64,000 nucleotides of DNA from a virus: IMG/VR virus record IMGVR_UViG_3300021400_000072. One strand, written 5' to 3'. Made by a program: the position numbers and the translations under genes. Positions 1 to 42,255 of the stretch are shown piece after piece. Position 1 is the stretch's first letter. Each line of letters opens with the position of its first letter. The notes under the pieces are model-generated. The model was not told the DNA's origin. It saw only the letters and a list, made by a program, of their open reading frames with translations, and made no database searches.

Positions 1-73
1 GCTCAGAACTAGACTTGAACTAGTAACGCGAGGATCTTCAGTCCTCCGCTCTACCCATTAAAACTATCTGAGC
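1..73 (-). tRNA. tRNA-Phe(GAA); 3' end at window edge
   Basis: Minus-sense cloverleaf: acceptor GCTCAGA/TCTGAGC, anticodon arm GAGGA-CTGAAGA-TCCTC, T-arm ACTAG-TTCAAGT-CTAGT. Confidence 0.7.
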
Positions 74-151
74 ATAACAAGACATATAATTTGTAAATAA
101 TGACTGTTTTTCAGACAGTTGTCTTAACCATTTGACTACATAAGCTAACGT

Positions 152-286
152 GCTTGTGACAGGATTCGAACCTGTAAACTTACAAAAGTAAGAAATTGCT
201 GTATATGTCTTTCATTTTATATTTATGTTGTGGATTCTTGATTTTATTTGATGTTGGTGCCTTATTCGCCTAAATCCACATAAGCC
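152..286 (-). ncRNA. tRNA-like element (T-arm ACAGG-TTCGAAT-CCTGT plus CTTAC-TTTT-GTAAG tetraloop hairpin); 5' end unresolved
   Basis: Canonical T-arm and 3' acceptor-like strand CACAAGC, but no canonical D or anticodon arm. Best 5' partner GCTTATG (280-286) leaves one mismatch and implies a ~60-nt insertion. Confidence 0.3.
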
Positions 287-291
287 AACAG

Positions 292-373
292 TAATTCTGG
301 TGGGATTCGAACCCACATGCCTTCTGACCACAGGGTTTGAGCCTGTTGCGTATACCAATTCCGCCACAGAATT
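292..373 (-). tRNA. tRNA-Leu(CAA), type II
   Basis: Acceptor AATTCTG/CAGAATT, anticodon stem ACAGG/CCTGT with loop CTCAAAC, 13-nt variable arm, T-arm GTGGG-TTCGAAT-CCCAC. Confidence 0.75.
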
Positions 374-401
374 ATATCCTGCTTACGCAGGAATTAAGAA
401 G

Positions 402-792
402 TAGAAGCGAAGGGATTCGAACCCTCAATCCTTGCGGTAACGGATTTTCTTACTACTCTATGTCACCATAGCCATCTTAAAGATGTTGTAGTCTGGACTA
501 TGTCTTTGCCATATTATTTCTAACTTAGGCAGATGGTATATAGTCTCTACACATTTATAAATAAAAAGGCTGTTTATCAAAATCCATTTAACTACAGCGT
601 TATACGAACTCGCCACTATCAAATTGGCTTCCTCAGTCTGTCGTAGCACCCTTTTATTTAATTTAGCTCGGCGTTCTCTTAGCTATTCGCCGAATTAGCC
701 ATCTCCACTTATATCATTTCTGATATAAGGCTCTCCTTTTATGTTTACTAAGAAAAAAGTCCGTCGTGTATACCAGTTCCACCACGCTTCCA
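402..792 (-). tRNA. tRNA-Leu(UAA) interrupted by a ~310-nt group I-like intron in the anticodon loop
   Basis: 5' exon GGAAGCG..ACGGA-CTT (785-757), 3' exon AAAA-TCCGT + long variable arm + T-arm GAGGG-TTCGAAT-CCCTT + CGCTTCT (441-402). The acceptor pairs with two wobbles. Spliced loop CTTAAAA gives anticodon UAA. Intron lies between U34 and A35, ends in G, and has P7-like AGACTA...TAGTC. Confidence 0.6.
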
Positions 793-885
793 TATAAATT
801 TAAACGGTTGTAAAGATAAAAATTTATTATTTTTCTATTTTAACAGGGAAAAATAATAAAAGCCTGCCTAACAACTTAATAATGA

Positions 886-1254
886 TTACTGCTCACGAGA
901 AGCAATAAACGCATCATACTCGTCCTTGAAGCACCAAGCAAATCCATAAGCCTTATGGGTCTTAGTTCTTCCATTCAAAGCATCACCGATGCCTGACTTG
1001 CCTTCTTGTCCAATTGCGGCAAGTGCTTCCTTCTGTGTTGCAAACTCTGCAATAACTGCATAAGTTTCGGGGTCAAGCTGAAGAACACCTGACTTATTCG
1101 GACTCTTACGCTTACGAGCGGCGGCCGCCTCATCTTCCTCAACACGAGCAAGTGCTTCTCTCAAGGTATCCAGAAGCTGCTCTCTGATACCTTCATTTAC
1201 ATCTGTTGCATTTTCAAAATAGAAAATCAAACCTTCAATCTGTTTCTTATCCAT
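886..1254 (-). CDS. hypothetical protein (122 aa)
   Basis: ORF with RBS AAAGGAG upstream of the ATG; minus-strand promoter TTGACA-N17-TATAAT at 1281-1325. Confidence 0.7.
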   Translation of the reverse strand: MDKKQIEGLIFYFENATDVNEGIREQLLDTLREALARVEEDEAAAARKRKSPNKSGVLQLDPETYAVIAEFATQKEALAAIGQEGKSGIGDALNGRTKTHKAYGFAWCFKDEYDAFIASREQ

Positions 1255-1280
1255 ATTTACTCCTTTTTACTCTTGTTTTT

Positions 1281-1325
1281 TAATTTCTATAAATATATTA
1301 TACTAAAAATTTTTTATTTTGTCAA
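1281..1325 (-). promoter_or_regulatory. sigma70-type promoter (TTGACA-N17-TATAAT) for gene 886..1254
   Basis: Minus-sense TTGACAaaataaaaaatttttagTATAAT. Confidence 0.6.
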
Positions 1326-1969
1326 CAATTGAATAACTTAATTATATCTATGAATAACACCCCTTCGGGTTGCTGGCAATAACCTTCTCTTATATTCGAC
1401 CACCAAGGAGACATACCTGAGCGGTTAGGAGCGACCTAAACGCTATATGCCCCATCTGTCTAAGACAGACAAATCTTGTAGAGGATTTTGCATACCTCTA
1501 ACTTTCAGCTACCTTTCAGAAAAGTATAAATAAGATTTACCATATCTTGTTTATCCAAATTTGTCTACGCACTTTTAGCCTACTCGTACCTTGACCCAAT
1601 CTTATACACGACTTCCGTCGCTTCATGTGCGCTAACCCCTTATGGAAATTCCAAGGTTTGCAAAGTTTTCCACGCTTCACCTAACTTGGATTAGTGCTCT
1701 CGTTAAAGAACCCTATATTATGGAGCCGATTGGAACAGTGTCTTTAAAAGCGATTACCCCAGTGCTATTGACTAAACCATTTCTTTAGACCTGGCGTTTT
1801 ATACGTCACCGCATAAAAACTTTTCTCCTAAGAAAGTATCCTTTCTTATTCTGGTTATTCGTAAAGCCAATACCTCAGCGTCATGGAATTGACGTTTATC
1901 ACTGAGTTGCTTCATAAATATAACTAAATTATTCAATTGTCAATGTTCTTTTGTTGGTAATCCAACGAA

Positions 1970-2042
1970 GGTCTTAGGTAAGGAATCGAACCTTACTTAT
2001 TCATCTCTTTTGAGAATCACATTACCTATATGTTACTAAGAC
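1970..2042 (-). ncRNA. tRNA-like gene with atypical anticodon arm (TCTC-AAAA-GAGA tetraloop)
   Basis: Perfect acceptor GTCTTAG/CTAAGAC, D-arm ACAT-ATAGGTA-ATGT, T-arm GTAAGG-TTCGATT-CCTTAC; 73 nt with no 7-nt anticodon loop. Confidence 0.45.
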
Positions 2043-2253
2043 GCCTATCTATGTATATCATCAGAAAGGAAGTGAATATAAAAAGGGATAAACCCATTTA
2101 TAACAATGCAAAGGGGAGTAGCGTGTAGCACTATCATCTAATGTTCTCCCTAGTTTTTGTTTTGGAATTTCGCCAAAAGGACTTATTTGATATATTGGAA
2201 AGTGCTTAATCTCGTAATCCATCACAGGGCTTATATGGTAGCCTGAACCTCGT

Positions 2254-2325
2254 AGCGGAGGTGGGATTCGAACCCACGTGATACGGCGTATGAGACCGCG
2301 CTGGTACCTCTCCAGTCCACTCCGC
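2254..2325 (-). tRNA. tRNA-Met(CAT) (Met, fMet or Ile2 type not distinguishable)
   Basis: Anticodon stem GCGGT/GCCGT with loop CTCATAC; T-arm GTGGG-TTCGAAT-CCCAC; acceptor GCGGAGT/CCTCCGC with a U-C mismatch at 7-66. Confidence 0.55.
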
Positions 2326-2418
2326 AATATTAATCAAGACAGTTTAAAATATAGCCTATTTAATCCCAAATTTAAATGCTTGTATTTTTTCTTTTGTTGC
2401 TGTTTCTGTCTTTCACTT

Positions 2419-2457
2419 TCTATAAATATTATAACAAAAAATTTTTTAAAAATCAAA
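2419..2457 (-). promoter_or_regulatory. conserved promoter repeat TTGATT-N17-TTATAAT upstream of tRNA-Met
   Basis: Plus strand ctataaatattataacaaaaaattttttaaaaatcaaat; its reverse complement is a sigma70-like -35/-10. Confidence 0.55.
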
Positions 2458-2649
2458 TACGGTATATGCATCTACCGTATTGGTCTATGAGGGCTACCAC
2501 TCCGCTTGCTATATCGTTTTTATCCTTCAGCTAGTTCTAGGGGCCAAGACATTTGTTCTCTTTTTGCAACAATAGCTTTCCGAACCTTAAAAAGTCAACC
2601 TACTTATATTAATATCATTGCCTAAGGTTATATTAATACTTTCAGTAAA

Positions 2650-2706
2650 TGCTCTATGTAGGAGTCGAACCTACACTCACAAAAGTAAGTTCCATCATAA
2701 TAGAGC
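2650..2706 (-). ncRNA. 57-nt tRNA-like mini-element (acceptor + T-arm + tetraloop hairpin, no D or anticodon arm)
   Basis: GCTCTAT / TATGATGGAA / CTTAC-TTTT-GTGAG / T / GTAGG-TTCGACT-CCTAC / ATAGAGC. Confidence 0.45.
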
Positions 2707-2785
2707 AGTCTCCTTTTATCTCTCTTATATTTTAAAAGAGCCAAAAAATAATGCTCTGAAAAGAGGAAAGATGATACGTATCAAG

Positions 2786-2859
2786 TAGCCCCTGGGGGAA
2801 TTGAACCCACCATCTTGACCTTGAAAGGGTCATATCCTGTCCTTTTAGAAGAAGGAGCC
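2786..2859 (-). tRNA. tRNA-Glu(TTC)
   Basis: Anticodon stem TGACC/GGTCA with loop CTTTCAA; T-arm GTGGG-TTCAATT-CCCCC; acceptor GGCTCCT/AGGGGCT with two G-U pairs. Confidence 0.55.
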
Positions 2860-2868
2860 ATATTTCTT

Positions 2869-2912
2869 TCACTTTCTATAAATATTATAATAAAAATTTT
2901 TTAAAAATGCAA
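2869..2912 (-). promoter_or_regulatory. promoter repeat TTGCAT-N17-TTATAAT
   Basis: ctataaatattataataaaaattttttaaaaatgcaaat. Confidence 0.55.
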
Positions 2913-3311
2913 ATAAAAATGGGAACTTATATTAACACTGTATCCCCTGATAGGTTTGCGCTAGCCTTATCTTACAGCGGGTTTTCCTAAGTCCAGTTTT
3001 CCTTGTCATTCCCATGCATTTATATACCGAGCGAGAACAGACGCGGTTATTGCGGCAATAAAAATTTTTTAAAAATGCAAACTTTTATCTTTATAACGTA
3101 TGACACTGCACCTAAAGTCATATTGACATACTTTATGTTAGGATTCTAAAAAATTTAGTATACATTAATTAATTAGCTATGGACGCATGTTTTCCTACCC
3201 TATTATAAAGATAAGTTGCGGGCTGGCGCCTTGCCCTAAACGGTTTTACGACCTCACCGTCTTAACGTCTACGTTTTGTCCATCAGGAGCGACCTGCTTT
3301 GCAGTAGCCAA

Positions 3312-3392
3312 TAGGGGACACGGGATTCGAACCCGCACGCACAAGGCACTAGATCCTAAGTCTAGGGTGGCTACCAGTTACACCAATCCCCC
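3312..3392 (-). tRNA. tRNA-Leu(TAG), type II
   Basis: Anticodon stem CTAGA/TCTAG with loop CTTAGGA; long variable arm; T-arm GCGGG-TTCGAAT-CCCGT; acceptor GGGGGAT/GTCCCCT. Confidence 0.65.
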
Positions 3393-3791
3393 ATATAAGA
3401 TAGATGCTTGCCAACGCTTTAGCCCCAGCTCGGGTATCTATCATACCCTACTCCCACAAACTTGGGATGCAGTAAGAGTTTCACCTGTATAACTCTGTAA
3501 AGATACTGTATCTTCTACGGCGTACAGTTCACTCACATTACCGGATTCTTTTAATCACTCCTAAAGAATCTAACTGGCTACATTTTAGCAGCTTAGATTT
3601 ACATTGGCGGAAGGTAAATCAACTTCCTCTTTTACTCAAATTTTGAAAATTTGAGATAGGTTGATCCTACACCTAAAGGACTTTTTCCAGTAACACCCCA
3701 AAAAGCAAAGCGGCTATCCTATCAACAGCTTAGATTTACACATTCAACCGAGTAGATTTACATATTAATAGGAAGGTAAATCAACTTCCTA

Positions 3792-3864
3792 ACGACCTAG
3801 TGGGGAATTGAACCCCAGTCTCTCGGGCGACAACCGAGTGTAATTACCTTTATACGACAAGGCC
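3792..3864 (-). tRNA. tRNA-Asp(GTC)
   Basis: Anticodon stem CTCGG/CCGAG with loop TTGTCGC; T-arm TGGGG-TTCAATT-CCCCA; acceptor has one mismatch. Confidence 0.55.
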
Positions 3865-4049
3865 AAACATTAAATAGCTTAGTCCATTTCTTAGGCTCCC
3901 TTCTCACTATAGCCTGAATTCCACAGGTCATGACTCCTGTTATTCTAGGTAGTTCACTATGGTCTCGCTCTCCCGACCGCCGTGATTTGGTGGACTCTCT
4001 TGATGTTTATGCGCACTATTAAATCAAGTCACCATTGCTATTTATGTAG

Positions 4050-4122
4050 CGGCCCCAGAAGGGTTCGAACCTTCGACATAACGGTTAACAGCCGTTCGCT
4101 CTGCCAACTGAGCTATAGGGCC
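4050..4122 (-). tRNA. tRNA-Asn(GTT)
   Basis: GGCCCTA-TA-GCTC-AGTTGGCA-GAGC-G-AACGG-CTGTTAA-CCGTT-ATGTC-GAAGG-TTCGAAC-CCTTC-TGGGGCC-G; clean cloverleaf. Confidence 0.85.
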
Positions 4123-4224
4123 AAATATGAGGGTTACTTTGCGTCTTTATATACCGTTTTCCACTAAAGCCACATATCTTATGCCGGTGGTAGTTTACCC
4201 TCAAAATCCATGATAACGGTTTAA

Positions 4225-4299
4225 TCATCCCTACAGGCTTTGAACCTGTGTTTCAAAATTGAGAATTTTGTGTCCTGAACCGAACTAGACGAAGGGACG
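4225..4299 (-). tRNA. tRNA-Glu(CTC)
   Basis: Anticodon stem CAAAA/TTTTG with loop TTCTCAA; T-arm ACAGG-TTCAAAG-CCTGT; acceptor CGTCCCT/AGGGATG. Confidence 0.6.
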
Positions 4300-4377
4300 A
4301 CAGTGCTTTTTCTGGCGTCACACTTTCCGCCTTGAGCCTGAGAACTTTTTAAAGGGAGTTTCTGAACTCATGCCGTT

Positions 4378-4557
4378 TTAACCCTCGTCCGCACGGACAT
4401 AATTTTCTGTTACTTCATAATGAAATCCAATCCAACCAAATCTATCTTCCAAAAATCTCACAGCAGAGAAGCCTTCAACAAACGTAATATGCTTCTGATT
4501 TACATCGTCAAGATACTCAACCATGTAGATAACAGCAGTTCTCTCATTCTTTCTCAT
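4378..4557 (-). CDS. small hypothetical protein (59 aa)
   Basis: ATG at 4557 with RBS AGGGGG 8 nt upstream; TAA at 4378; promoter repeat at 4612-4652 immediately upstream. Confidence 0.5.
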   Translation of the reverse strand: MRKNERTAVIYMVEYLDDVNQKHITFVEGFSAVRFLEDRFGWIGFHYEVTENYVRADEG

Positions 4558-4611
4558 AATAAAGACCCCCTGAAATGATATTTTTTAGTTTGTTTTTGTT
4601 TCTTTTTCTTA

Positions 4612-4652
4612 CGATATAAATATTATAACAAAAAATTTTTAAAAATTCAAAT
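4612..4652 (-). promoter_or_regulatory. promoter repeat TTGAAT-N17-TTATAAT
   Basis: acgatataaatattataacaaaaaatttttaaaaattcaaat. Confidence 0.55.
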
Positions 4653-4782
4653 AATATGCAGTGTGCTGTTACGCCAAAGGGAAGTCAGCCCTTACCAGTT
4701 ACGGGGTGGCCTTCTACTTCTATCATACGATAGTCCCACTCTTTAAAAGATGGATGCTTTTAATCCCACTTTCTACATATAA

Positions 4783-4853
4783 AGCCCCTCCCCGGATTTG
4801 AACCGAGATACAGTGATTACAAATCACTAGTGTTACCGTTACACCAAAGGGGC
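4783..4853 (-). tRNA. tRNA-Thr(TGT)
   Basis: D-stem GTGT/ACAC; anticodon stem AGTGA/TCACT with loop TTTGTAA; T-arm CTCGG-TTCAAAT-CCGGG; acceptor GCCCCTT/GAGGGGC. Confidence 0.7.
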
Positions 4854-5029
4854 ACGCGTACCGCCGCAGTGATTATAGAGATGCTTCGCGGTTTTCCTGG
4901 GTTTCATTCTCTTTTTTGTTAATTAACTTTATAAGCTATAGGTTGCTACCCCAGTCTAACGATGACCGACGACCTGTGAATTAAAGGTTTTAACAGGTTT
5001 TACTTACCTAATTATGCTACGAAAGCATA

Positions 5030-5103
5030 TGGACCACTAGGGATTTGAACCCTAATCTGACAGATTAAGAGTCTGCTATGTTAACCGTTAACACCAGTAA
5101 TCC
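5030..5103 (-). tRNA. tRNA-Lys(CTT)
   Basis: Anticodon stem GCAGA/TCTGT with loop CTCTTAA; T-arm TAGGG-TTCAAAT-CCCTA; acceptor GGATTAC/GTGGTCC with two G-U pairs. Confidence 0.55.
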
Positions 5104-5213
5104 AGGCTTATACAGCTACATACCTACTATATCAGGACATTACTCTGATTTTCTAAGTTTTTCTTAGTATGTTATGATTTTACATTATATAGTGTTATGG
5201 ACCCTGTATAACG

Positions 5214-5285
5214 TGCGTCCGGTGGGAGTTGAACCCACGATATACAGGTTAAAAGCCTGTTGCCATACCGCTTGGCTACGGACGC
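5214..5285 (-). tRNA. tRNA-Lys(TTT)
   Basis: GCGTCCG-TA-GCCA-AGCGGTA-TGGC-A-ACAGG-CTTTTAA-CCTGT-ATATC-GTGGG-TTCAACT-CCCAC-CGGACGC-A. Confidence 0.85.
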
Positions 5286-5346
5286 TTATTAAATTTTTAT
5301 AAATGCCCGTAGGCTTGCGTTTTCGTTTCATTTTTTATTCCCTCAC

Positions 5347-5392
5347 TTTGTATAAATATTATAACAAAAATTTTTTAAAAATTCAAATAAAA
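5347..5392 (-). promoter_or_regulatory. promoter repeat TTGAAT-N17-TTATAAT
   Basis: gtataaatattataacaaaaattttttaaaaattcaaat. Confidence 0.55.
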
Positions 5393-5508
5393 TTTGAAGG
5401 GTTGCATCGAAGATTCTTAGGTAGTCTTACAACGGATTGATTACCGACGCCCATGACGTGTCTCTCGTCCGTGTCCCATTTTTATTCTCTTCACAAATCT
5501 TATTTGAG

Positions 5509-5580
5509 AGCAGACAATGGGAATCGAACCCACATTTTTAGCTTGGCAAGCTAACATATTAACCGTTATATTATGCCTGC
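5509..5580 (-). tRNA. tRNA-Gly(GCC)
   Basis: Anticodon stem TTAGC/GCTAA with loop TTGCCAA; T-arm GTGGG-TTCGATT-CCCAT; acceptor GCAGGCA/TGTCTGC. Confidence 0.7.
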
Positions 5581-5810
5581 TTGAACTAGGATATATGGCC
5601 AACTTACCTAGATATATTTTAGCACCTTACCAGGCCGCCCTCATTTTAGTTACCATAAGCAATTGGCCGCGTGCTCACCAAGCCGCCGGATTGGGTTAAG
5701 TACCCAATAACTCCTTATTTTTCTTTCGTGAAATAAAGCAACCCGACTACGTTCTTTAACCTCTCGTAATAAAGAAGACCACCTCTTTCTAGCATCCTGT
5801 GGTCAGGGAC

Positions 5811-5882
5811 AGCCCCATGTGGGAATCGAACCCACCTATCTAGCTTGGAAGGCTAGCATTTTAGCCGATAAATCAATGGGAC
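5811..5882 (-). tRNA. tRNA-Gly(TCC)
   Basis: Anticodon stem CTAGC/GCTAG with loop CTTCCAA; D-stem ATTT/AAAT; T-arm GTGGG-TTCGATT-CCCAC; acceptor GTCCCAT/ATGGGGC. Confidence 0.7.
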
Positions 5883-5887
5883 AGATA

Positions 5888-5950
5888 TAAAAACTATTAA
5901 AGGTACGCTTTATGGGTGGAAGCGGCGCGTACTTGATTTTAATAGTTTTT
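5888..5950 (-). other. long leader hairpin between promoter 5953-5995 and tRNA-Gly(TCC)
   Basis: AAAACTATTAAA...TTTAATAGTTTT outer stem with inner GTACGC/GCGTAC stem. Confidence 0.4.
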
Positions 5951-5952
5951 AT

Positions 5953-5995
5953 TTGTTATGATAATATTATATCAAAAATTTTTGAATATTTCAAA
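5953..5995 (-). promoter_or_regulatory. promoter TTGAAA-N17-TATAAT
   Basis: Minus-sense TTGAAAtattcaaaaatttttgaTATAAT. Confidence 0.5.
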
Positions 5996-6008
5996 TTATT
6001 TTTGACCT

Positions 6009-6308
6009 TTATTTAGAAAAATAATATCTTCGCCAATACTTATAAAAATCTTTTAATGTAGGATAATCTTCTTGCCAAACAATACCATACATATTAGGAT
6101 GAAAATATTCAAATTTAGCATCTTTCCATGTCCATCTACTAATATAGTCATGTATATGCTATGTTTCAAAGACTTTTTTATAAGCATTTCCATTAGGAAG
6201 AATAATTTTACTACGTCTTATTCTTTTATTTGCTTGTCTTTTGTTTCGTTTAGGAATAGGCGTACGCCCATCTGTATAAACAGGATTCTTTTTATATGAA
6301 CGTGACAT
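6009..6308 (-). CDS. basic hypothetical protein (~99 aa) with one in-frame TAG
   Basis: ATG at 6308 with RBS AAAGGAG; ORF runs to TAA at 6009 through one TAG (absent from the ORF track for that reason). Likely cotranscribed with tRNA-Ile and the tRNA-Gln-like gene. Confidence 0.45.
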
Positions 6309-6323
6309 ATTTTTCTCCTTTGA

Positions 6324-6395
6324 TTGCGAGGGTAGGATTCGAACCTACAATCACCGGGTCAAAAACCGGCCGCTTTACCGTTAGCGTACCTCGCT
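6324..6395 (-). tRNA. tRNA-Gln(TTG)-like with 8-nt anticodon loop (TTTTTGAC) and unpaired A1:A72
   Basis: D-arm CGCT-AACGGTAA-AGCG; anticodon stem (G)CCGG/CCGG(T) enclosing 8 nt; T-arm GTAGG-TTCGAAT-CCTAC. Arm sequences resemble E. coli tRNA-Gln1 except for the loss of the position-39 nucleotide. Confidence 0.45.
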
Positions 6396-6517
6396 TACTT
6401 ATCATACCTTTTTATCTGTCTGAGAGTAGCTACCTCTCCCCATCTACTTACCACAATCCTTGATAATATTCTTTGATAAGCATAATACATGTTATATGAC
6501 GTCATTTTATGTATTAG

Positions 6518-6591
6518 TAGGGGACCTGGGACTCGAACCCAGGACACGCACCTTATAAGGATGCTGCTCTCACCTACTGAGCTAGTCCCCT
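6518..6591 (-). tRNA. tRNA-Ile(TAT)
   Basis: AGGGGAC-TA-GCTC-AGTAGGTGA-GAGC-A-GCATC-CTTATAA-GGTGC-GTGTC-CTGGG-TTCGAGT-CCCAG-GTCCCCT-A. Confidence 0.8.
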
Positions 6592-6616
6592 AAACGGGAT
6601 ATTTTTTATCCCTTAA

Positions 6617-6660
6617 CTTTATAATAATATTATAACAAAAAATTTTTAAAAATGCAAATT
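6617..6660 (-). promoter_or_regulatory. promoter repeat TTGCAT-N17-TTATAAT (for tRNA-Ile operon)
   Basis: tataataatattataacaaaaaatttttaaaaatgcaaat. Confidence 0.55.
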
Positions 6661-6665
6661 AATTT

Positions 6666-6953
6666 TTAACAAATCATAAATTTTCTATTGCGGGCTTCCC
6701 GATTAATCCATAACGTAAATCTATGACAATCGTTATAACTCCATTTCCACAAGAGTAGATTAGAATCTTTAAAATAATGAAAATCAAAAGCATGATAATC
6801 ATTTTTAAGTATTATTATATAATCAGTTAAACTGATATTAAGCATACGTGCGGGAAGCCACCAATAATTGCTACCGTGAGCCAAATCAGAAACATCTCCA
6901 GAATACCATTTTCCATTAGATTCCCACTCAGTATATTTCATAATATGGCTCAT
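6666..6953 (-). CDS. hypothetical protein (95 aa)
   Basis: ORF in a compact minus-strand series. Confidence 0.5.
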   Translation of the reverse strand: MSHIMKYTEWESNGKWYSGDVSDLAHGSNYWWLPARMLNISLTDYIIILKNDYHAFDFHYFKDSNLLLWKWSYNDCHRFTLWINREARNRKFMIC

Positions 6954-6962
6954 AATAACTCC

Positions 6963-7274
6963 TTATAGATTTAGGGCGGCAATTAAATCTGCAACATTCT
7001 GCTTCTCTTCTTCAGTTACTTCCGCAGGATTAACAGTTCTTTCTGTCGGGGTACCGAAAGCTGATGGAGCGGCCGCAGGTCCAAAAGCACTCTTTAATTC
7101 ACCTGAACCCATATTAGATTTTGCCGCAGTCAAAGTAACTTTAATTTCTACAACTCCACTACCTTCACTCATCGGAATACGAAGAATTTTACCTTCATCT
7201 TCCCAAAAAGCATCGGGATAAACACGTTTCAATTCCGCAAAAATTAAATTCTTACTCTCTGTGCCTTTTGCCAT
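6963..7274 (-). CDS. hypothetical protein (103 aa)
   Basis: ORF with RBS AAAGGAG; promoter-like TTGAAA..TATAAA at 7283-7330. Confidence 0.6.
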   Translation of the reverse strand: MAKGTESKNLIFAELKRVYPDAFWEDEGKILRIPMSEGSGVVEIKVTLTAAKSNMGSGELKSAFGPAAAPSAFGTPTERTVNPAEVTEEEKQNVADLIAALNL

Positions 7275-7355
7275 TTCATTTCTCCTTTATTTTATAAATA
7301 TATTTTACTAAAAATTTTCAATTTTTTCAAATCGGATATTTTTTTGATTTAATGA

Positions 7356-7928
7356 CTAACTTAATTCAATTATATTATCACAAATTTTACAAGAAGTAGG
7401 TTCTATCAAACATCTTCTACTACATCTTGACCGATATTCTCCAAATTGAGGAAGAATTGTACTATTAATTTCTTCTCCATCATAATTATAAATTATATCT
7501 TTTAATTTCCCATCCCATTTATGTTCTATTCCATAAATTTCATATAAAGTATTATACGCTTTATTTCCATTAATATCCACGAATTCAAACGTATCTATGA
7601 ATTGAGCATAATATGGTATATCTTCTGGACGAATAAAGAAATTTCTTATAGTGTCTATACTATCCCATTTTTTCTCACAATAATTGCAAAAACATCTTAG
7701 GCGGATTCCCTTTTTCTTAGTAAAATCCCTTGTAATTTTCATCATAAAAGCTAAATTTCCGCCAATTCTAATGTCTGTTACATTTAAAGAACAAAATCCA
7801 AGCAGATTTTCCCAATCACAGCAAATATATTGATAATAATGAGGAATGTTTAATGAATTGAATTTTTCTTCTATTTCTTTATTATAAATGACACTTCGTA
7901 CCGATATATTTGAATATATTTCCGCCAA
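7356..7928 (-). CDS. Cys-rich hypothetical protein (190 aa)
   Basis: ORF with multiple CxxC pairs. Confidence 0.5.
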   Translation of the reverse strand: MAEIYSNISVRSVIYNKEIEEKFNSLNIPHYYQYICCDWENLLGFCSLNVTDIRIGGNLAFMMKITRDFTKKKGIRLRCFCNYCEKKWDSIDTIRNFFIRPEDIPYYAQFIDTFEFVDINGNKAYNTLYEIYGIEHKWDGKLKDIIYNYDGEEINSTILPQFGEYRSRCSRRCLIEPTSCKICDNIIELS

Positions 7929-8130
7929 TGCACCTAAAATTGTAAAATCTTTTTCATCTAAAGGTACTGTTGTAATAATATTAATACGATAATCTTTATA
8001 TTCAGAAAGAAAATCATATAATTCTTTTATTTTAGGTTTATATATAATATTAATTTCTATTTTATCTTTATCGAAATATTTAAAGTTTCTATAAAATGGT
8101 ATCTAAAATTTCATTCTAATCCTATCCTCT

Positions 8131-8769
8131 CTACTCTCGGAATCCTGAAAAATCAATAATAATAGGATGACCATTTTTATATCCTACATTATCATAAGTT
8201 AAATCATCATTCCATTTAAGTTTTTTAATTAAAGTAAGAAACTCTTTAAACTTTTTTGGCCCATAATATTTTAATAAATCTATACACCAATCACTATTTA
8301 AATCATACCAACAATTAATTTTATGTAAAAAGGAATCCATTAATTCTCTTTTTTCTTTTGTTTTGTTATATGAGTTATTAAAAGGGGTACATTTTTCTTG
8401 AAGATAAATAGGATAATCATTAGCATAGCCAATAAAAATAGTTTCTGCAAAGCAATCTTTAAAAGGGGTAGAATAAATATTTTCATATCGTTCTACTTCT
8501 ACATTACAGTAATCCCATTCAAGTTCAGAGTTTGCACCAATAAAATTACAAAAACAATCTTCATAATATCCCTGGAAAGGAATTTTTATAACATAATCTT
8601 TATTACGTGGCATAATTACAAGTTTTGTTGCACCAAAATCATAATTAAAAATATACCCTTTATCAAAAAGATATAAAGTTAATTCATCTACTCTTGTATC
8701 ATCAAAAGTAGGATTAAAAAAATTAAAACCTTCAAACATATTAAGAATTTCATCTTCATTAAATGTCAT
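8131..8769 (-). CDS. hypothetical protein (212 aa)
   Basis: ORF; hairpin + T-run terminator at 8827-8868 upstream of the next unit. Confidence 0.55.
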   Translation of the reverse strand: MTFNEDEILNMFEGFNFFNPTFDDTRVDELTLYLFDKGYIFNYDFGATKLVIMPRNKDYVIKIPFQGYYEDCFCNFIGANSELEWDYCNVEVERYENIYSTPFKDCFAETIFIGYANDYPIYLQEKCTPFNNSYNKTKEKRELMDSFLHKINCWYDLNSDWCIDLLKYYGPKKFKEFLTLIKKLKWNDDLTYDNVGYKNGHPIIIDFSGFRE

Positions 8770-8868
8770 GTGTTATAATATTCTCCTTTTATTTTATATT
8801 TTTATTATAACAAAAAAAATAAAAAAAATCAAAGAGACCCCATAAAGGTATCTCTTTGATTTTTATAA

Positions 8869-9729
8869 TTAAATTTTAACAGCTTTACAACGGTTAAGAA
8901 CAGTTTGTTTTACACCATTATAAATCTGATGTTTCTTTACAGTTCCGGTAAGAAGAATAGTATCTCCTTTTTCAATGTCTTCATCAAGACCTGCGCCAGA
9001 GCAAAACCATGTAAGTACATTTTCACCCATTTTGAAAGTATACAGAATAGAAGTTCCATAATAACTTTCAACTGTGCGGGAACCTACAAGAGTAACATGA
9101 AGGTCTCTAAGACGTTCTTTCTCTTCTCCGATATATTCAGAGTTAGATTTTGGCATACATGCTTCTTTGGCGGCATCTGCTATTTCTTTAGCTTCATCCT
9201 TAATAAAGGCTTTCTTAATACGCCATTTCCAGTCAAAAACTTCATCAAAAGGAATAGAAGTCATTTTATATCCTGCGGGAACTTCTACGGGATGGGAAGC
9301 ATACCAGCCAAGATGAGGCTCAAAACGGCAACCAGCTTCTTTAAGAACATCCTTAATAGCATAAGTATCTCCAAGAATAAGCCAAACAAGAGGATTCTCT
9401 ACATCATAACCATTTTCCGCAAGGTAAATCCGCTTATTCTCCTCACTTGCAGCCTCCAGGCCAAGCATTTCTGCGGCTTTCTTTTCTGCTTTCCTCGTTT
9501 TTGCTTTTTCCTGATTAGCAACATACTTCTCATACTCCTCAGGAGTATAAGCCTTTACCCACTGACCCAGGCGGCCGCTACCATTACAACGGAAGCATGT
9601 ACCAAACCATGCGTAGACACCAGTCCCGCCACATCTATCACAAACTTCCTCAATATATGCTTTATGAGTGTTCTCATCTACCTTTTTAATAGTTGCATGC
9701 GCGTAAGAAGGGGCTACCATCCAAGTCAT
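8869..9729 (-). CDS. hypothetical protein with N-terminal zinc ribbon (286 aa)
   Basis: CDRCGGTG...CFRCNGSG motif. Confidence 0.55.
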   Translation of the reverse strand: MTWMVAPSYAHATIKKVDENTHKAYIEEVCDRCGGTGVYAWFGTCFRCNGSGRLGQWVKAYTPEEYEKYVANQEKAKTRKAEKKAAEMLGLEAASEENKRIYLAENGYDVENPLVWLILGDTYAIKDVLKEAGCRFEPHLGWYASHPVEVPAGYKMTSIPFDEVFDWKWRIKKAFIKDEAKEIADAAKEACMPKSNSEYIGEEKERLRDLHVTLVGSRTVESYYGTSILYTFKMGENVLTWFCSGAGLDEDIEKGDTILLTGTVKKHQIYNGVKQTVLNRCKAVKI

Positions 9730-9749
9730 ATTCTTTCTCCTTTTTCTGA

Positions 9750-9995
9750 TTAAACTCTGCGTTCTACTTCTCGTTTAATTCTTGCTTTGTCTTTTGCGGA
9801 AAGAGTGTCAAGATTAAGACCGTGTTTTGCGAGAATTTCCTCTTGCATATCATTAATATCATAATCTTTTCTTGCGTAAGTAACAAAATCATTAATTGCG
9901 GCATTTATCTTTGCCGTTTTAGTAGTTACCATATTATCCATTCCCGCAGATTCCATCATATAAAGACCATAAGGTGTACCAAACATTTTTTTCAT
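9750..9995 (-). CDS. hypothetical protein (81 aa)
   Basis: ORF preceded by an AT-rich promoter-like repeat at 10020-10050. Confidence 0.5.
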   Translation of the reverse strand: MKKMFGTPYGLYMMESAGMDNMVTTKTAKINAAINDFVTYARKDYDINDMQEEILAKHGLNLDTLSAKDKARIKREVERRV

Positions 9996-10048
9996 TTCCT
10001 TTCTTTCCTTATCTTTATATATATTATATAAAAAATTTTAAAAAAAAT

Positions 10049-10075
10049 AAAGGGGATGTATTACATCCCCTAAAT
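10049..10075 (-). terminator. intrinsic terminator after lysin gene
   Basis: GGGGATGTA-at-TACATCCCC stem followed (minus sense) by T8. Confidence 0.6.
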
Positions 10076-10076
10076 A

Positions 10077-11825
10077 TTATTTATGAAAAGTCTTATTTAA
10101 ATTATTTTTTGAACAGCTGATTATCATATTGTCTGGATAACAATCAACATAACATTCTCCATTTTCGTATGCCATCATAACAATAGCACCTTTATCAGTA
10201 AAGACTTTATAAGTTAATTTGCGGCCTCCGCTTGATTTACTATGATGATAATTAGATAATCCAACTTTAGGTGAACAAGCATTAATTTGAATTATCTTAA
10301 TACCGTTTCTGTCAGAGTGCCATTGTAATTTAAATACATCACATTTTAATTGATTCTTTTTCTATGCTACTAAAGCATCAATAGCCTAATAAGAGAGGTC
10401 CCCAGCAGTGAAGAATTTCCATCCGTTTAAATTAAACATTAATGCAACAGACATCATATTTACAAAATGATGGTCATCAGTTTGTTTTAATTTAGAACGT
10501 TTTACTTGCCAAGACCAATCTAGTTTAATATTACCTGCGGACCAAGTAAAACCGTTAGATATGTATTTATAATTAATTCTCTTATCTTTAGCTATTGTTC
10601 CGATACTTTTTAAAGTAGAAATAGCTTTTTTCGCGGCTTTTACAGATTCCATTTCTTTATAATCTGATATAAAAATATTCTCTACTGTAAAAGTCTGGCA
10701 AATAGATTTTAAAATACTTAAATTTGCATGATCCCCGTGTCCGTGAGAAATAAATATAGCGTTTATTTTTGGCGGATTAATCTTTTTTAGCTTTTTAATT
10801 GTATCTCCCCCGCCAGGACCCGTATCTATTAAAACACAATTTTTAATTGTTTTATTATCATCTGCATACTCGGTGATAAGATAACTGTCACCATATAAAT
10901 TACTATTAGATTCAGACGTCCAAATTTGATGTATTCTTATTTTATTTTTTTTTGATGAAGGGGCTTGAGTTAATATTTCATTAACCTTCTTTTGTACTTT
11001 AGTTGTATCATATCCACAGAATTTTAATAATAATACTCTTATTTCACCTTTATCAAATTTATTTGCTATTACACATTGGGCGGCCGCCTATACAGTTTTA
11101 CCTTTTAGAGCATATATTTCATTAATATGAGTTTGAACTTTGTTAGCCCATGAAGATAAACGTTTTGTTCGATAGTCATTTTTACCCATGTATCCTGCAA
11201 TTGTAGCAATAGCAAGAGCATGAACAGTATTAGATTGATTTGAAACAATCTAATTTACTTTATTTTGTATTGCTTTTGCGTTCTATGTGCCAAAAGCGGC
11301 AAGCATAGCAGTTCTATTAGTACCAGATCCATAAGTGCCAAGAATTACCTAAGCCGCGCAAATAGTCGTTTGAAGATTATTCATTATAGGCATAGCATTA
11401 TATTTAGGTCTAATGTATCCTAAAACAAATCTACCTTTATATGTTCTACGACTACAACCACCATTATAATTTCCTGAAATAGTTCTGTTATATCCTACAC
11501 AGAATTCGGTATGATTAGGCTTTTTATTACTGTCACAATAGATGATAATATCTCCAGGGCGGACGCCTGAAGTTCCATTATGCCAAATTCCTAATTTCTT
11601 TGCTTTTGATATAGCATCACCAGAAATTTGAGAATATCCTCCTATTGTATCTATTCCGCCTGCATCCTATAAAGCTGCCATAATTGTCATTGTACCCCAA
11701 GCCGCAGACATTTTAGCACTATGATTATGTTTTTTTAATGTGTTTACAACATCCTAATGTGCGGTCTTACTACCGTCATATTTATTATAGGCTGTTAAAA
11801 CATCCCAAACTGTACATTTTCCCAT
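10077..11825 (-). CDS. putative lysin: N-terminal CHAP/NlpC-P60-like Cys-His hydrolase fused to C-terminal metallo-beta-lactamase-fold domain; TAG-recoded
   Basis: ATG at 11825 with RBS AAGGAGG. Reading frame continuous to TAA at 10077 through about 8 in-frame TAG codons. Motifs ...GDIIIYCDSN...HTEFCVGY... and ...ISHGHGDH.... Confidence 0.6.
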
Positions 11826-11837
11826 TTATTGTCCTCC

Positions 11838-12593
11838 TTATAAATTAACATCACTTGAAATGTAATATCCTGTCATTTTATAAGTTTTACAGAATTTTTG
11901 AATACGTGCTTTAAGATTTGCGGAAGTTGTATATTCTAATAAAAATGTTTGCATTTTATGACGAAGAATTCGTTTCATGTGACTTTTATACCATGAGTGC
12001 ATATCTTTTTTCTGCTAACCGAATTTTCCCTTTCCGCTATAGCTTTTAATTAAACTATAAACTTCCTCTTGTGTAACACCATCTATAAATGTGATTGTTT
12101 TATGAGAAGAATCTTTATCCATAAGTTTATCTAAAAACTAACTTCCGCCATTTATCATTATATATTTAGTTTTATCTATTGCCCGTATTCTTTTTAAGAG
12201 AGTAATAATACCATTATACATTTCTGTACTTTTGTGATATTCATATACATCTAGGTTATCTAGCCACCAACCTTGAAATCCGCGGTTTTTTAGTTCTCTT
12301 GCTCTATATACAATAAAATCTCTAACTGCGGGTTTCCTTAAATCGAGATAATATTCATGGGGCCAGTCCTATAATTTACTAAGCCGATAGGGTTTTAATT
12401 GTTTATAATAACTTCTCTAATTAGAAATAGAGCCGGCAGATAAATACCCTAAAAGGGTATAACCCGCGGCTCTTAAATCCTAAATCTATTTATTTGTATA
12501 ATCCTATGGCTAAATAACTAAAATAGTTTTAGTTTTTGCTTTTCCTAATTTCTTAGGAGTAGCTTTTGTTGTTAACATAACAATATAATTCAT
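11838..12593 (-). CDS. glycoside hydrolase-like TIM-barrel (GH114-like); TAG-recoded
   Basis: Continuous frame from ATG 12593 to TAA 11838 with about 9 in-frame TAGs; motifs RGFQGWWLDNLDV and MINGG. Confidence 0.45.
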
Positions 12594-24693: not shown

Positions 24694-24764
24694 GGCAAAA
24701 AAAATAGGGCCTGGAATATTCCAGGCCCACACACAGAAAGGAGGACAAATAAAAGTCAGTCAAG

Positions 24765-24837
24765 TGTGCCCGAAGGGACTTGAACCCTCGACCCTTTGAT
24801 TAAAAGTCAAATGCTCTACCAACTGAGCTACGGGCAC
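24765..24837 (-). tRNA. tRNA-Lys(TTT), second copy
   Basis: GTGCCCG-TA-GCTC-AGTTGGTA-GAGC-A-TTTGA-CTTTTAA-TCAAA-GGGTC-GAGGG-TTCAAGT-CCCTT-CGGGCAC-A. Confidence 0.85.
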
Positions 24838-27192: not shown

Positions 27193-28008
27193 AGTGATAT
27201 TCTCCTTTTCTGATGGTAATTATTAATTGAAATGTGTCCATCCTACCAGCCTAGGGGTTCCAGACACTCCCCGTATGTTGCCTCATCTCACATTTATATA
27301 CCGCAAAGTAGGACTTCGGCTTGCGGTGGTGGGTCTTTGTTAGGAAGACTTACTGCGACAACTAGGCGTCTTGGGTTCTTTTCCCTTGCTTCCATCCCTC
27401 ATCTTATGTATTTATTATAGCACCTTTTGGTAACTATGTCAATACTTTTTTTAAAATTTTTTCAATCTTTGTGGTCCTGACCCGTGAGGTAGATTGAAAA
27501 CCCAGAGCGGTTTATGTCGTGTCCTCGTCGCCATAGCACGGCTTTTTGTTTATTGAGGAGTTTGCTCTCCTCATTTGATGATTATATTTTATCATCTTTT
27601 TTAATATTTGTCAAGGGGTTTTTCCTTTATTTTTGATTTTTTTATGAGCGTTCCGACCTCTATGAGGTAACTGTTGGTTTAAGCTCTCCCCTTGACAATT
27701 ATTATTATAAGCGATAACCATTAAAAATGCAATAGGTAATAATGCACAAATTACGGGATCAAAAAAGATTATTATTTGTATAATTTTCCTATTGACAAAA
27801 AGCTGACGGGTGTGATATAATGATTTTTCCGCGCGCCCCGGAGGAACGCGCGGCGAGCAAAAAAGGACAGCTAAACTGTCCTTAAAATTTTGGCGGTTAG
27901 GATGCGCTCCCGTTTTTATCTAACCTTTAATCATCTTCGTTAGTGACGCTCCTATGAACAATTTCTAAACATAGGGTCTTCTAACTTGCATCCAGTGGAA
28001 CCAATTTT

Positions 28009-39203: not shown

Positions 39204-40406
39204 ATGGCAAAAATAACATGTTAGAAATGCGGTCGTACCATGTAGGAAGTTAAATTCTTTTCTTATCGAACGGGTGAAAAATTTTAGATATGTAAAGAAT
39301 GTATAACTTTACACGTTGATAATTTTGATGAAAGTACTTTTTTATGGATAATATAGAAGGCAGATGCTCCTTGGGTTCCTATTTTTTGGAATAGAATTAG
39401 AGATAAAGAGTATGCGAAGCACGGTGGAAAATTAAAAGGGACATCTGTTATTGGTAAATATTTATCCTATGTAAAATTAAAACAATATAAGAAATATACT
39501 TGGGCAACAAGTTAGGAATTACAAAAGTAGGTTTCTCAAAAAGAAGGTGTAGATAAAGAGGCATAGGAAGTCCGCCAAGAAAAATTAAAAGAACAACTTG
39601 AAAAAGGTGAAATTAGTTAGGCACAGTATAGAACTTTATCAAGTTCAGAATTTCAAAAGTAGAATGAATATATAATGATGCCTAAAATACCTTAGCAAGA
39701 TGCTATCGGTAAAGATAATGCTTTTAATGAAAATGATTTTTTCCCATAGGAAGAGTTGCCTGATTTGGCGGCCGACCTTACGTTAGAAGATAAGAAATAT
39801 CTTGTTATGAAATGGGGCCGCACTTATAAAATGAATCAATTAATTGAACTTTAGAAAAAATATGTTTAGATGACGAATTCGTTTGATATACAAGATGCAG
39901 ATAGTAAAAATTCTTTGATTCTTATTTGTAAGACTTATTTAAAAATGAATTAGGCTTTAGACTGCGGAGATGTAGAAGGATATGGTAAATATAGTAGAAC
40001 CTATGATATGTTAAGGAAGTCCGCAAAGTTTACCGCAGCACAAAATAAAGAAGAAAAGGGTGATGCCGTTGATTCAGTTGGTGAATTAGTTGCCTTTTGT
40101 TAGAAAAATGGTGGGCGAATACCTAGATTTTAGATTAAACAACCTGATGCTATTGATAAAATTATTGATGATTTAAAAGCATATAATAGAAGTCTTATTT
40201 ATGAAGATGCTGCTCTCGCAAGACAAGTTTAGGATTATTTGAAACAAGCAAGAGCGCAACAAATGAAGAAAGAAGATACTAAAATAGCTAAAGAACAAGG
40301 CTTTGATGTACCTCAATTAACAGAAGAAGATACATTAGCTTATAAAGAATTTTTAAGACAATAGGCTGATGAAACTGAAAAAATAACAGGGGGGCATCAA
40401 GAATGA
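39204..40406 (+). CDS. zinc-ribbon N-terminal domain protein (~400 aa), TAG-recoded; paralogous N-terminus to 38796
   Basis: MAKITC-x-KCGRTM... aligns with the 38796 product; about 20 in-frame TAGs; TGA stop overlapping the next ATG (ATGA). Confidence 0.5.
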
Positions 40407-41335
40407 GTTTACAAACATTATTAGATAATTCTCTTGCTTATGAAGGTAAAAAACAAGGTATATCTGAATAGAGATTACTTTAGCATATAGATGATATAAG
40501 AGATAAAATTGCTTTTTTTAGATAGTATCCTGATTTATTTATTGATTTTATACAAGGTCCAGAGGGTACTTTTAAATTTCTTTATTACCAGCGGATCTTT
40601 TTGCGAATTGTTATGCGGCATCGGTATGTTTATGCAACGTTCCCGCGTGCGTATTCAAAATCCTTTTTATCAATGATGGCGTTGATGATTAGATGCGTTC
40701 TTTATCCTGGTGCCGATTTATTTGTAACTACGGGTGGTAAGGAACAGGCTGCTTCAATTACTGTAGCGAAAATTGAGGAAATTTGCCGTTTAATTCCCGC
40801 GCTTGCAAATTAGATAAACTGGGATAGAGGTAAAACTAAAAAGTCAAGAGATGATGTAAACTATGTATTTAAAAACGGTTCAAGAATAAGTATTCTTGCC
40901 GCAAAAGAATCTTCAAGAGGACAAAGAAGAACAGGCGGAATTATGGAAGAATGTGTTCTTATTGACCAAACAATGTTAAATGAAGTTATTATTCCTACTA
41001 CTAACGTTAATAGACAACTTGCGGACGGCACTCGTGATAGCAAAGAAGTGGTTAATAAGTCACAAATATATATTACTACCGCAGGATGGAAGAATTCGTT
41101 CGCTTATGATAAACTTATTTAGCTATTGATACGTAGTTTAATTTAGCCAGATGAAGTTATGATAATGGGCGGAACTTATGAAACGCCTATATTAGAGGGG
41201 TTGTTAGATGAAGATTTTGTATAGCAATTAAAATTATCTGGTACTTTTAATGAGGATTCTTTTGATAGATAGTATAAAAGATTTTGTACTATTAAAATTA
41301 TTGAGAATTGCTGGAACACCCTTAGAGCCATATAA
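40403..41335 (+). CDS. terL: terminase large subunit, N-terminal ATPase part (upstream exon or split gene)
   Basis: ...RYVYATFPRAYSKSF... P-loop-like, ...LFVTTGGKEQ..., ...IYITTAGW...; TAG-recoded; ends at TAA 41333 just before intron-like RNA. Confidence 0.55.
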
Positions 41336-42255
41336 ACTACAACATAGAAATGAAAGATATTCAAGTGTGAATGTTTAAAAATTATATGGATTGGGAAATC
41401 AGCAGCCGAGCCTTGAACAGAGGAAGGTTCAACGACTAAGTACTTTACAATGCGTAAAGCAGTACAATACAGAATACAAAAGAAAGGTTATTATTATGAA
41501 ACAAATTATTATTGATAATATTAGTACCTCTTATTTTATTACTGAAGATGGAAAATGTTATAATTCTAAAACAGGTAAATATTTACAAGGACAATAGAAT
41601 TATAAAAACCATTATTTTTCTTATATGTTAACTATGCCAGACGGATCTAAAAAAAGACGTTATGCGCATAGATTGGTAGCTATGGCATTTTTACCTTAGC
41701 CATAGAATAAAAATAAAACAGAAATAAATCATAAAGATGGAAATAAATTAAATAATTACATTGATAATTTATAGTGGGTAACTCCTCAAGAAAATGCTCA
41801 ACATGCATTAAAAAATAATTTAAGAAAATTTGAGCATGTTTTTTGTTTCAATAAAGATCAACAATTAGTTGCAGAATATAAAACTGTAAAATAGGCAGCT
41901 AAAGCTGTCAAAATTAATGAATCTTTAATATATCAAGAATTACAAAAAGAAATAAAAACTCTTTCTGGGGGTTTTTATTGGTCGAAAGAAAAAAAATTAA
42001 AAAAAATAAAGAATTATCCAAATTTAGGAAAATCAAAAGAGGTTTTTCAATACGATTTAAATGGACGTTTTATTAATAAATACAATTCTACAGGAGAGGC
42101 TGCTAGAAGTTTAGGAGTTTCTTCTAATTCACATATAGGAGAATGTTGCAGAGGTAAAATAAAAACATATAAAGGTTTTATATGGAGATATTCTGAAGAT
42201 ATAGTCTCGCCTTCAGAGAAATCTGAAGAGAGTGATTGCGGTCACTCGTAAGATA
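41336..42255 (+). mobile_element. probable group I intron carrying an HNH homing endonuclease ORF, inserted in terL
   Basis: Non-coding flanks have GGGAAATCAGCAG (P4-like) and CAACGACTAAGT (P7-like); ORF 41496..42251 has NHKDGNKLNNYIDNL-x-WVTPQEN (HNH) and a NUMOD-like ...GEAARSLGVSSNSHIGECCRGK. Confidence 0.5.
41496..42251 (+). CDS. HNH homing endonuclease with C-terminal NUMOD-like HTH
   Basis: See the intron entry; 5 in-frame TAGs. Confidence 0.65.

Follow-up and report, generated by a model that had tools for sequence, protein, structure and literature searches.

Reading of stop codons as glutamate is known from the nuclear code of peritrich ciliates (NCBI table 30), in which TAA and TAG both specify Glu. 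Among phages, TAG is recoded in code-15 gut phages that carry a suppressor tRNA with a CUA anticodon, tRNA-Sup(CUA), such as the crAss-like, Lak and Phass-1 groups. In them the in-frame TAG codons cluster in the genes for structure and lysis, the CUA suppressor belongs to a large tRNA array, genomes measure about 135-180 kb and hosts are of Bacillota type. For phages whose code differs from that of the host, surveys report only TAG to Gln and TGA to Trp (Borges preprint), and Phass-1 was published as TAG to Gln (PMC10607447). The stretch analysed here, IMG/VR virus record IMGVR_UViG_3300021400_000072 (64,000 nucleotides, hereafter the window), comes from a phage that shares these traits of the code-15 gut phages and is a true relative of Phass-1, with 54% identity in a capsid-like protein; yet its TAG codons align with Glu, whereas those of Phass-1 align with Gln. 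We propose, with a probability of about 0.85, that UAG in its late and lysis genes is read as Glu by a suppressor tRNA with a tRNA-Glu body, encoded in the part of the tRNA array that lies beyond the window. The peritrich code is alike in giving glutamate to a stop codon; it is eukaryotic, includes TAA and applies genome-wide, whereas here only TAG is concerned, in a phage and in some of its genes.

The recoding of TAG in the window phage is real. On the (+) strand, the sequence from 37.7 to 64 kb turns into contiguous packaging and structural open reading frames (ORFs) once TAG is taken as sense, which marks the window as phage DNA. The two regions with in-frame TAG are the following:

37682-64000 (+): structural and packaging module with sense TAG, including terminase, portal, capsid-like protein, virion structural protein and, as its largest ORF, one of at least 2849 aa with 84 in-frame TAG.
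7305-12593 (-): four ORFs with 4, 4, 8 and 8 in-frame TAG codons, called with TAG as sense.

Together they hold 227 TAG in 9673 codons, and these 227 are the codons that the suppressor must read. Selected ORFs translated with TAG as sense matched PHROG families of large terminase, portal, virion structural protein and endolysin, the endolysin-type matches being those of the 582-aa ORF 10077-11825 (-). In-frame TAG occurs in essential genes, and their full length is restored by its sense reading. A different code in the ORF-poor segment from 17.5 to 37 kb was considered and rejected, the region consisting of many small ORFs. The nearest named phage is Phass-1 (OQ749652), with the capsid-like protein identity given above; for the standard-code Enterococcus phage EF1 the figure is 37%. 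By megablast against phage records, the array region 1-7400 had no match and the structural module only short matches of low coverage.

The meaning of TAG was assessed in the window and 35 related loci, which were translated with X for TAG before the residues aligned to it were counted. The substitution profile of the window TAG contained E at 53%, D at 12% and Q at 6%, and its Kullback-Leibler divergence was 0.03 for Glu, 0.86 for Asp and 1.04 for Gln. At 143 TAG sites with at least three informative relatives each, the majority residue was E at 87, D at 16 and Q at 8. When only standard-code relatives were used (EF1 and the loci L029 and L030), TAG matched E in 42.1% of cases, as against 42.2% for the window's own E codons, and the difference lnL(E)-lnL(Q) amounted to 157. 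The codons of the relatives opposite TAG were GAA in 972 cases and GAG in 204; since GAG is the one that lies a single mutation from TAG, the excess of GAA points to equivalence at the level of the amino acid and not to a one-step mutational effect. The identical method, applied as a positive control, assigned Gln to the TAG of Phass-1 and of L025-L028; as this is the published meaning in Phass-1, the method is not biased toward E. Pyrrolysine, the label that ARAGORN attaches to tRNA(CUA), was rejected because the TAG profile equals the Glu profile.

By alignment, the group with TAG as Glu comprises the window, L001-L024, L031 and L032. The same family, sampled further in loci L025-L030, L042 and L043, has members with TAG as Gln (L025-L028 and Phass-1) and members without in-frame TAG (L029, L030 and EF1). 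In the portal homologues P0001-P0120 of public collections TAG is written as Q; several TAG columns contain only E, D and this 'Q', and the same residues dominate the rest. A clade of Bacillota phages of ~130-180 kb, formed by the window phage and at least 25 IMG/VR contigs, would thus probably use TAG for glutamate through an amber suppressor derived from tRNA-Glu, a code undescribed for a virus or bacterium. The surveys of phages and of suppressor isotypes that were consulted report Gln, Trp, Ile and Tyr and not Glu, and targeted text searches returned stop-to-Glu reassignment only in ciliates.

The window itself contains no CUA tRNA, as the sequence-only reading had observed: ARAGORN, relaxed ARAGORN inspected for CTA anticodons, Rfam and a hairpin scan all failed to find one in the 64 kb, the last returning zero 5-bp stems closing an NU-CUA/UUA-RN loop and followed by a T-loop. 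A relaxed call with anticodon 'tta' at 27308-27398, the sole one of its kind, was dismissed, having no Rfam support. The absence is an artefact of the window edge. Position 1 falls inside a tRNA-Phe gene whose 3' end is cut according to Rfam, and hence the array runs off the window. Its continuation was found by looking up in public assemblies the exact product of the small ORF 886-1254. The contig retrieved, L036 (ENA ERZ28612966 scaffold_493), is 100% identical to window 1-11254 over 11,254 nt and runs on for another 9.1 kb; it represents a separate assembly of the same or a near-identical phage. It carries the complete tRNA-Phe gene (11182-11256), followed by Tyr, Ile(GAU), Ala, Val, tRNA(CUA), Ser(GCU), Ser(UGA), Pro, His, Cys, Arg(GCG), Gln(UUG), Trp, Trp, a CAU-like tRNA with an 8-nt loop, Arg(ACG) and Arg(UCU). 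The tRNA(CUA) occupies L036 12304-12376, which places it 1,050-1,122 nt past the first letter of the window. It shares the array and the strand of the window tRNAs, and the earlier suggestion of a suppressor outside the window proved right.

This tRNA(CUA) is a canonical amber-suppressor cloverleaf. It was called by ARAGORN and reached 55.6 bits with the Rfam tRNA model (threshold 29), and its 7-nt anticodon loop, CUCUAAA with CUA at positions 34-36, is unchanged in all variants, while 13 of the 20 stem pairs show compensatory changes across six sequence variants. A promoter-like TTGATT-17-TATAAT lies 95 nt upstream. The gene is syntenic, between Val and Ser(GCU), in the relatives L033, L034 and L037; in L035 it stands beside Ser(GCU) in an array that is arranged differently. 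The full array has at least 33 tRNA genes, which serve every one of the 20 amino acids. It also houses a ROOL RNA and several tRNA-like elements, and from its sequence it would be transcribed from repeated sigma-70-like promoters. A theta (HDV-like) ribozyme 3' of the suppressor is unlikely, because only ~9 nt separate tRNA(CUA) from tRNA-Ser.

As judged from sequence, the body of the suppressor is of the Bacillota tRNA-Glu type. Its 5' acceptor strand and D arm read GGCCCGGUGGUCAAACGGUUUAAGAC, and the first 25 nt, used as a pattern, occur in over 120 bacterial genomes, almost all of them from Bacillota; ARAGORN called 116 tRNA genes at the pattern sites, and all 116 are tRNA-Glu (104 UUC and 12 CUC), a result that concerns the L036-type variant only. 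Among annotated phage records the best matches are likewise tRNA-Glu. The likeness to Bacillota tRNA-Glu(UUC/CUC) includes the 5' acceptor strand, the D arm, the U11-A24 pair (A11-U24 in the L033 variant) and a 4-nt variable region; in E. coli, U11-A24 and the absence of nucleotide 47 are among the identity elements of glutamyl-tRNA synthetase (GluRS). The suppressor differs from these tRNAs in its CUA anticodon instead of YUC and in having G1.U72 in place of G1-C72, and the bacterial gene closest to it is only ~78% identical. The acceptor end of the L036-type suppressor (G1.U72, G2-C71, C3-G70 and A73) is common to the tRNA-Glu(UUC) of the window, and the L033 and L035 variants have C1-G72 and G2.U71, as in the tRNA-Glu(CUC) of the phage. 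The features of tRNA-Gln, U1-A72 or a weak first pair and G73, are not seen: the first pair of the suppressor is G1.U72 or C1-G72, most variants have A73, and the D arm is that of tRNA-Glu. That of Phass-1, in contrast, has U1-A72, G73 and an encoded CCA, and is Gln-like. The conserved leader is kept ahead of the gene (L033 12359-12431 versus L036 12304-12376), and behind this one leader stand two types of body, GGCCCGG... resembling tRNA-Glu(UUC) and CGCCCUU... resembling tRNA-Glu(CUC), which suggests that the body of the suppressor has been swapped at a fixed locus. Hidden Markov models (HMMs) of tRNA isotypes, built from bacterial tRNAs with the anticodon masked, were also tried, and their result was discarded because the Glu training set had been chosen by the 5' pattern of the suppressor itself, which is circular.

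Charging would be done by the GluRS of the host, which would load the CUA tRNA with glutamate. In hosts that make glutaminyl-tRNA by the indirect route, the amidotransferase GatCAB would not amidate the suppressor, since it lacks U1-A72 and has a D loop of the tRNA-Glu type. Bacterial GatCAB depends on U1-A72 and does not accept tRNAs with the additional D-loop base of tRNA-Glu (PMC2811023). The same synthetase could in this way have two outcomes, a Gln-type body giving TAG as Gln and a Glu-type body giving TAG as Glu, and the choice of amino acid may hinge on whether or not the glutamylated suppressor is a substrate of GatCAB.

The most conventional alternative is that of an ordinary code-15 phage in which the tRNA(CUA) beyond the window carries glutamine and TAG means Gln. 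Gln is the only reassignment of TAG reported for phages (Borges preprint), it is the published reading in the relative Phass-1 (PMC10607447), and public protein databases give the TAG codons of these phages as Q. Nevertheless, the codons align with E and not with Q against 24 or more members of the clade and against three standard-code relatives, the Gln model trails the Glu model by 157 ln units under a method that does return Gln for Phass-1 and L025-L028, and the tRNA-Glu-like suppressor has neither U1-A72 nor G73. We hold this explanation to be unlikely, and the Gln-type suppressor that the sequence-only reading implied is not borne out. It could also be argued that the window genome has no suppressor of its own and relies on the host or on a co-infecting phage, L036 being a variant that carries one. 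Some recoded phages are indeed reported without suppressor tRNAs, and L036 is not the source record of the window; against this stand the 100% identity over 11,254 nt up to the edge, the termination of the window inside tRNA-Phe, by which the array demonstrably continues, and the presence of a CUA tRNA in four of the four relatives that could be examined past the edge (68-100% identity of the locating protein or DNA). Such dependence is very improbable.

A further candidate, proposed from the sequence alone, was that one of the atypical elements of the window decodes UAG. The two tRNA-like genes with tetraloops do exist (1970-2041 and 2650-2706), as does the Gln-like tRNA with an 8-nt anticodon loop (6324-6395), and all are conserved RNAs, which is what speaks for them. 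However, the tetraloop elements have loops of 4 nt and no anticodon, the 8-nt loop UUUUUGAC includes neither CUA nor UUA, and L034 is recoded at TAG with a CUA tRNA and has no 8-nt-loop gene. With a canonical tRNA(CUA) in the same array, neither the tetraloop elements nor the 8-nt-loop tRNA are needed for decoding, and they become irrelevant to it; a role as UAG decoder is the least credible of the explanations considered.

Some points weigh against the assignment of UAG to Glu through the off-window tRNA. L036 is a different assembly from the source of the window and by its coordinates cannot span the whole of it, so that the link consists in the 11.25 kb of identity. The crude isotype HMMs failed to assign even the Glu and Gln tRNAs that belong to the phage. 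The anticodon is CUA and not the YUC of tRNA-Glu, with only U35 and A37 kept. GluRS enzymes generally read the anticodon (in E. coli, U34, U35, C36 and A37), and efficient charging of a tRNA with CUA is consequently not guaranteed; a host that possesses glutaminyl-tRNA synthetase could, moreover, mischarge the amber tRNA with Gln.

The system is one of suppressor-mediated stop-codon recoding, with Glu as the probable new outcome, and decoding needs nothing exotic, as the suppressor exists and is canonical. If TAG does mean Glu, this would be a new phage genetic code, and one stop codon would have been captured for two amino acids among close relatives: Glu in the present clade and Gln in Phass-1 and L025-L028, with EF1, L029 and L030 keeping the standard code. 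Thousands of database proteins of the clade would then carry Q where E is encoded, at ~2% of the residues of late proteins, with consequences for phylogeny, protein charge and structure prediction. A family with standard members, members with TAG as Gln and members with TAG as Glu would be a natural system for the study of stop-codon capture and of the constraints set by synthetase and amidotransferase, and an amber suppressor based on tRNA-Glu may serve code engineering.

The part of the array inside the window, 1-6591 (-), has 15 ordinary tRNA genes and one with an 8-nt anticodon loop, and an extra tRNA-Lys(UUU) lies at 24.8 kb. Detection was by ARAGORN, by Rfam (gathering and E-value thresholds) and by local ARAGORN runs with introns or a lowered threshold, and in this way each anticodon listed in the sequence-only reading was recovered. 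The tRNA genes and the other RNA elements are:

1-73 (-): tRNA-Phe(GAA), truncated in its 3' end at the window edge; Rfam tRNA 46.5 bits, with a truncation flag; local ARAGORN c[-1,73].
74-219 (-): structured leader ahead of tRNA-Phe, with the stem AAGACAUAUA / UAUAUGUCUU closing a permuted tRNA-like module (fold).
291-373 (-): tRNA-Leu(CAA) (ARAGORN, Rfam).
401-791 (-): tRNA-Leu(UAA) with a 308-nt insertion (ARAGORN with introns).
1338-1930 (-): ROOL RNA, Rfam RF03087, 280.6 bits against a threshold of 99.1, over the full-length model.
1970-2041 (-): tRNA-like element with an AAAA tetraloop instead of the anticodon loop, directly 5' of ROOL (fold).
2252-2326 (-): tRNA(CAU) of Met or Ile2 type (ARAGORN, Rfam), with the leader AAGACAGAAACAGCAA...CUGUCUUG ahead of it at 2322-2419.
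2650-2706 (-): tRNA-like element with a UUUU tetraloop and without a D arm (Rfam tRNA 29.6 bits).
2786-2859 (-): tRNA-Glu(UUC), Rfam 42.9 bits; missed by default ARAGORN.
3311-3393 (-): tRNA-Leu(UAG) (ARAGORN, Rfam).
3792-3865 (-): tRNA-Asp(GUC) (ARAGORN, Rfam).
4049-4122 (-): tRNA-Asn(GUU) (ARAGORN, Rfam).
4224-4300 (-): tRNA-Glu(CUC) (ARAGORN, Rfam).
4783-4853 (-): tRNA-Thr(UGU) (ARAGORN, Rfam).
5029-5104 (-): tRNA-Lys(CUU) (ARAGORN, Rfam).
5213-5285 (-): tRNA-Lys(UUU) (ARAGORN, Rfam).
5508-5580 (-): tRNA-Gly(GCC) (ARAGORN, Rfam).
5811-5882 (-): tRNA-Gly(UCC) (ARAGORN, Rfam).
6324-6395 (-): tRNA resembling Gln(UUG), its anticodon loop 8 nt long (ARAGORN).
6517-6591 (-): tRNA-Ile(UAU) (ARAGORN, Rfam), with which the array opens, preceded by a promoter-like TTTGCA-18-TATAAT.
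24764-24837 (-): tRNA-Lys(UUU), isolated second copy (Rfam 77.1 bits).

The tRNAs from 3311 to 5882 are set apart by spacers. In the spacer immediately 3' of tRNA-Thr, and reaching into the final bases of that gene, 4689-4792 (-) has a weak Rfam match to positions 1071-1179 of bacterial 23S rRNA (24 bits, E=3e-4); several other long spacers of the array (e.g. 3400-3790, 3870-4045 and 5590-5810) received no assignment in the ARAGORN and Rfam scans. Phage clusters in which tRNAs stand together with stable RNAs that are not tRNAs include the tRNA region of T4 and those with ROOL near tRNAs, and the present array is of this kind. It differs from clusters of the T4 type in being larger, in covering all 20 amino acids and the suppressor, and in its 8-nt-loop tRNAs and tetraloop tRNA-like elements.

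In its predicted fold, element 1970-2041 cannot decode. At the corresponding position in L033 and L034 stand orthologues in which the acceptor, D and T arms are preserved and the anticodon arm is different and degenerate, and the place of the element beside ROOL would fit a role as processing "punctuation". Element 2650-2706, which is kept in four relatives, among them L033, L034 and L037, cannot decode either. The Gln-like tRNA at 6324-6395 is unpaired at 1:72 (A.A or C.A), and a second tRNA with an 8-nt loop, UUGCAUAC, is the CAU-like gene at L036 15647-15720; in each loop the additional base lies 5' of the anticodon. The Gln-like gene is present only in the close relatives L033, L036 and L037, where the compensatory change of A5-U68 to G5-C68 keeps the acceptor pairing, and a canonical tRNA-Gln(UUG) coexists with it (L036 14601-14673). 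It is not a reader of UAG. When the 8-nt-loop anticodon arm was searched for in IMG/VR, matches inside a tRNA were confined to the same close relative, and eight further matches were unrelated sequence.

A repeated leader, AAGACA-N3-ACAGCAA...UGUCUUG, forms a stem that ends just before the tRNAs Met, Phe, CUA, Pro and Gln. From sequence and fold, its copies are those at 74-219 and 2322-2419 (-) of the window and at L036 12217-12303, 13441-13568 and 14474-14600. One copy encloses tRNA-Arg(GCG), and two contain a tRNA-like module of permuted order (T arm, then closed acceptor hairpin, then D arm) with compensatory changes; in leader 74-219 these affect the T stem and the acceptor hairpin across L033, L034 and L035. 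An Rfam 'tRNA' match at 81-145 (34.8 bits) lies inside this leader, and its interpretation as a permuted or split tRNA gene was dropped for a Y-RNA-like reading. The likeness to the bacterial Y RNA YrlA is in the terminal stem and in the succession of the parts that it surrounds, from T arm through closed acceptor hairpin to D arm. The difference is that leader 74-219 scored 20.9 bits with the Rfam YrlA model, below its threshold of 69, and that no Ro60/TROVE gene was found at the sequence level. A gene for a protein with DUF2828 and DUF7788/vWA follows the array (L036 16294-17799; L037 17184-19552), the L037 copy being split by a gene with faint LAGLIDADG matches. Its architecture recalls that of Ro60 (TROVE+vWA), by analogy of domains; comparison with PDB sequences and Pfam gave no TROVE/Ro60 sequence match, and the literature on DUF2828 was uninformative. 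The 16-nt leader motif has mostly chance matches in IMG/VR: 19 of 118 loci keep the downstream CTGTCTT, and an ARAGORN tRNA follows in 8, of which 6 are CUA.

The 308-nt insertion of tRNA-Leu(UAA) lies exactly between U34 and A35, as located by ARAGORN and by alignment to the intact L033 orthologue (10464-10548); the gene is uninterrupted in L033 and L034. This is the classic site of group I introns in tRNA-Leu, and the insertion is a putative group I intron; against that label, the group I covariance model RF00028 gave no match to it at E<=5. In the structural module, the adjacent ORFs 40379-41335 and 41379-42251 (+) were noted, the first matching a large-terminase PHROG with a C-terminal tail that looks unrelated. 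The terminase gene at 40379-42251 appears to be split, and an intron in it is likely because the aligned region of EF1 bears an HNH 'phage intron' annotation. In the more distant relative L035, the tRNA array includes a tmRNA gene at 2485-2739, with the tag peptide ANEYQMAA.

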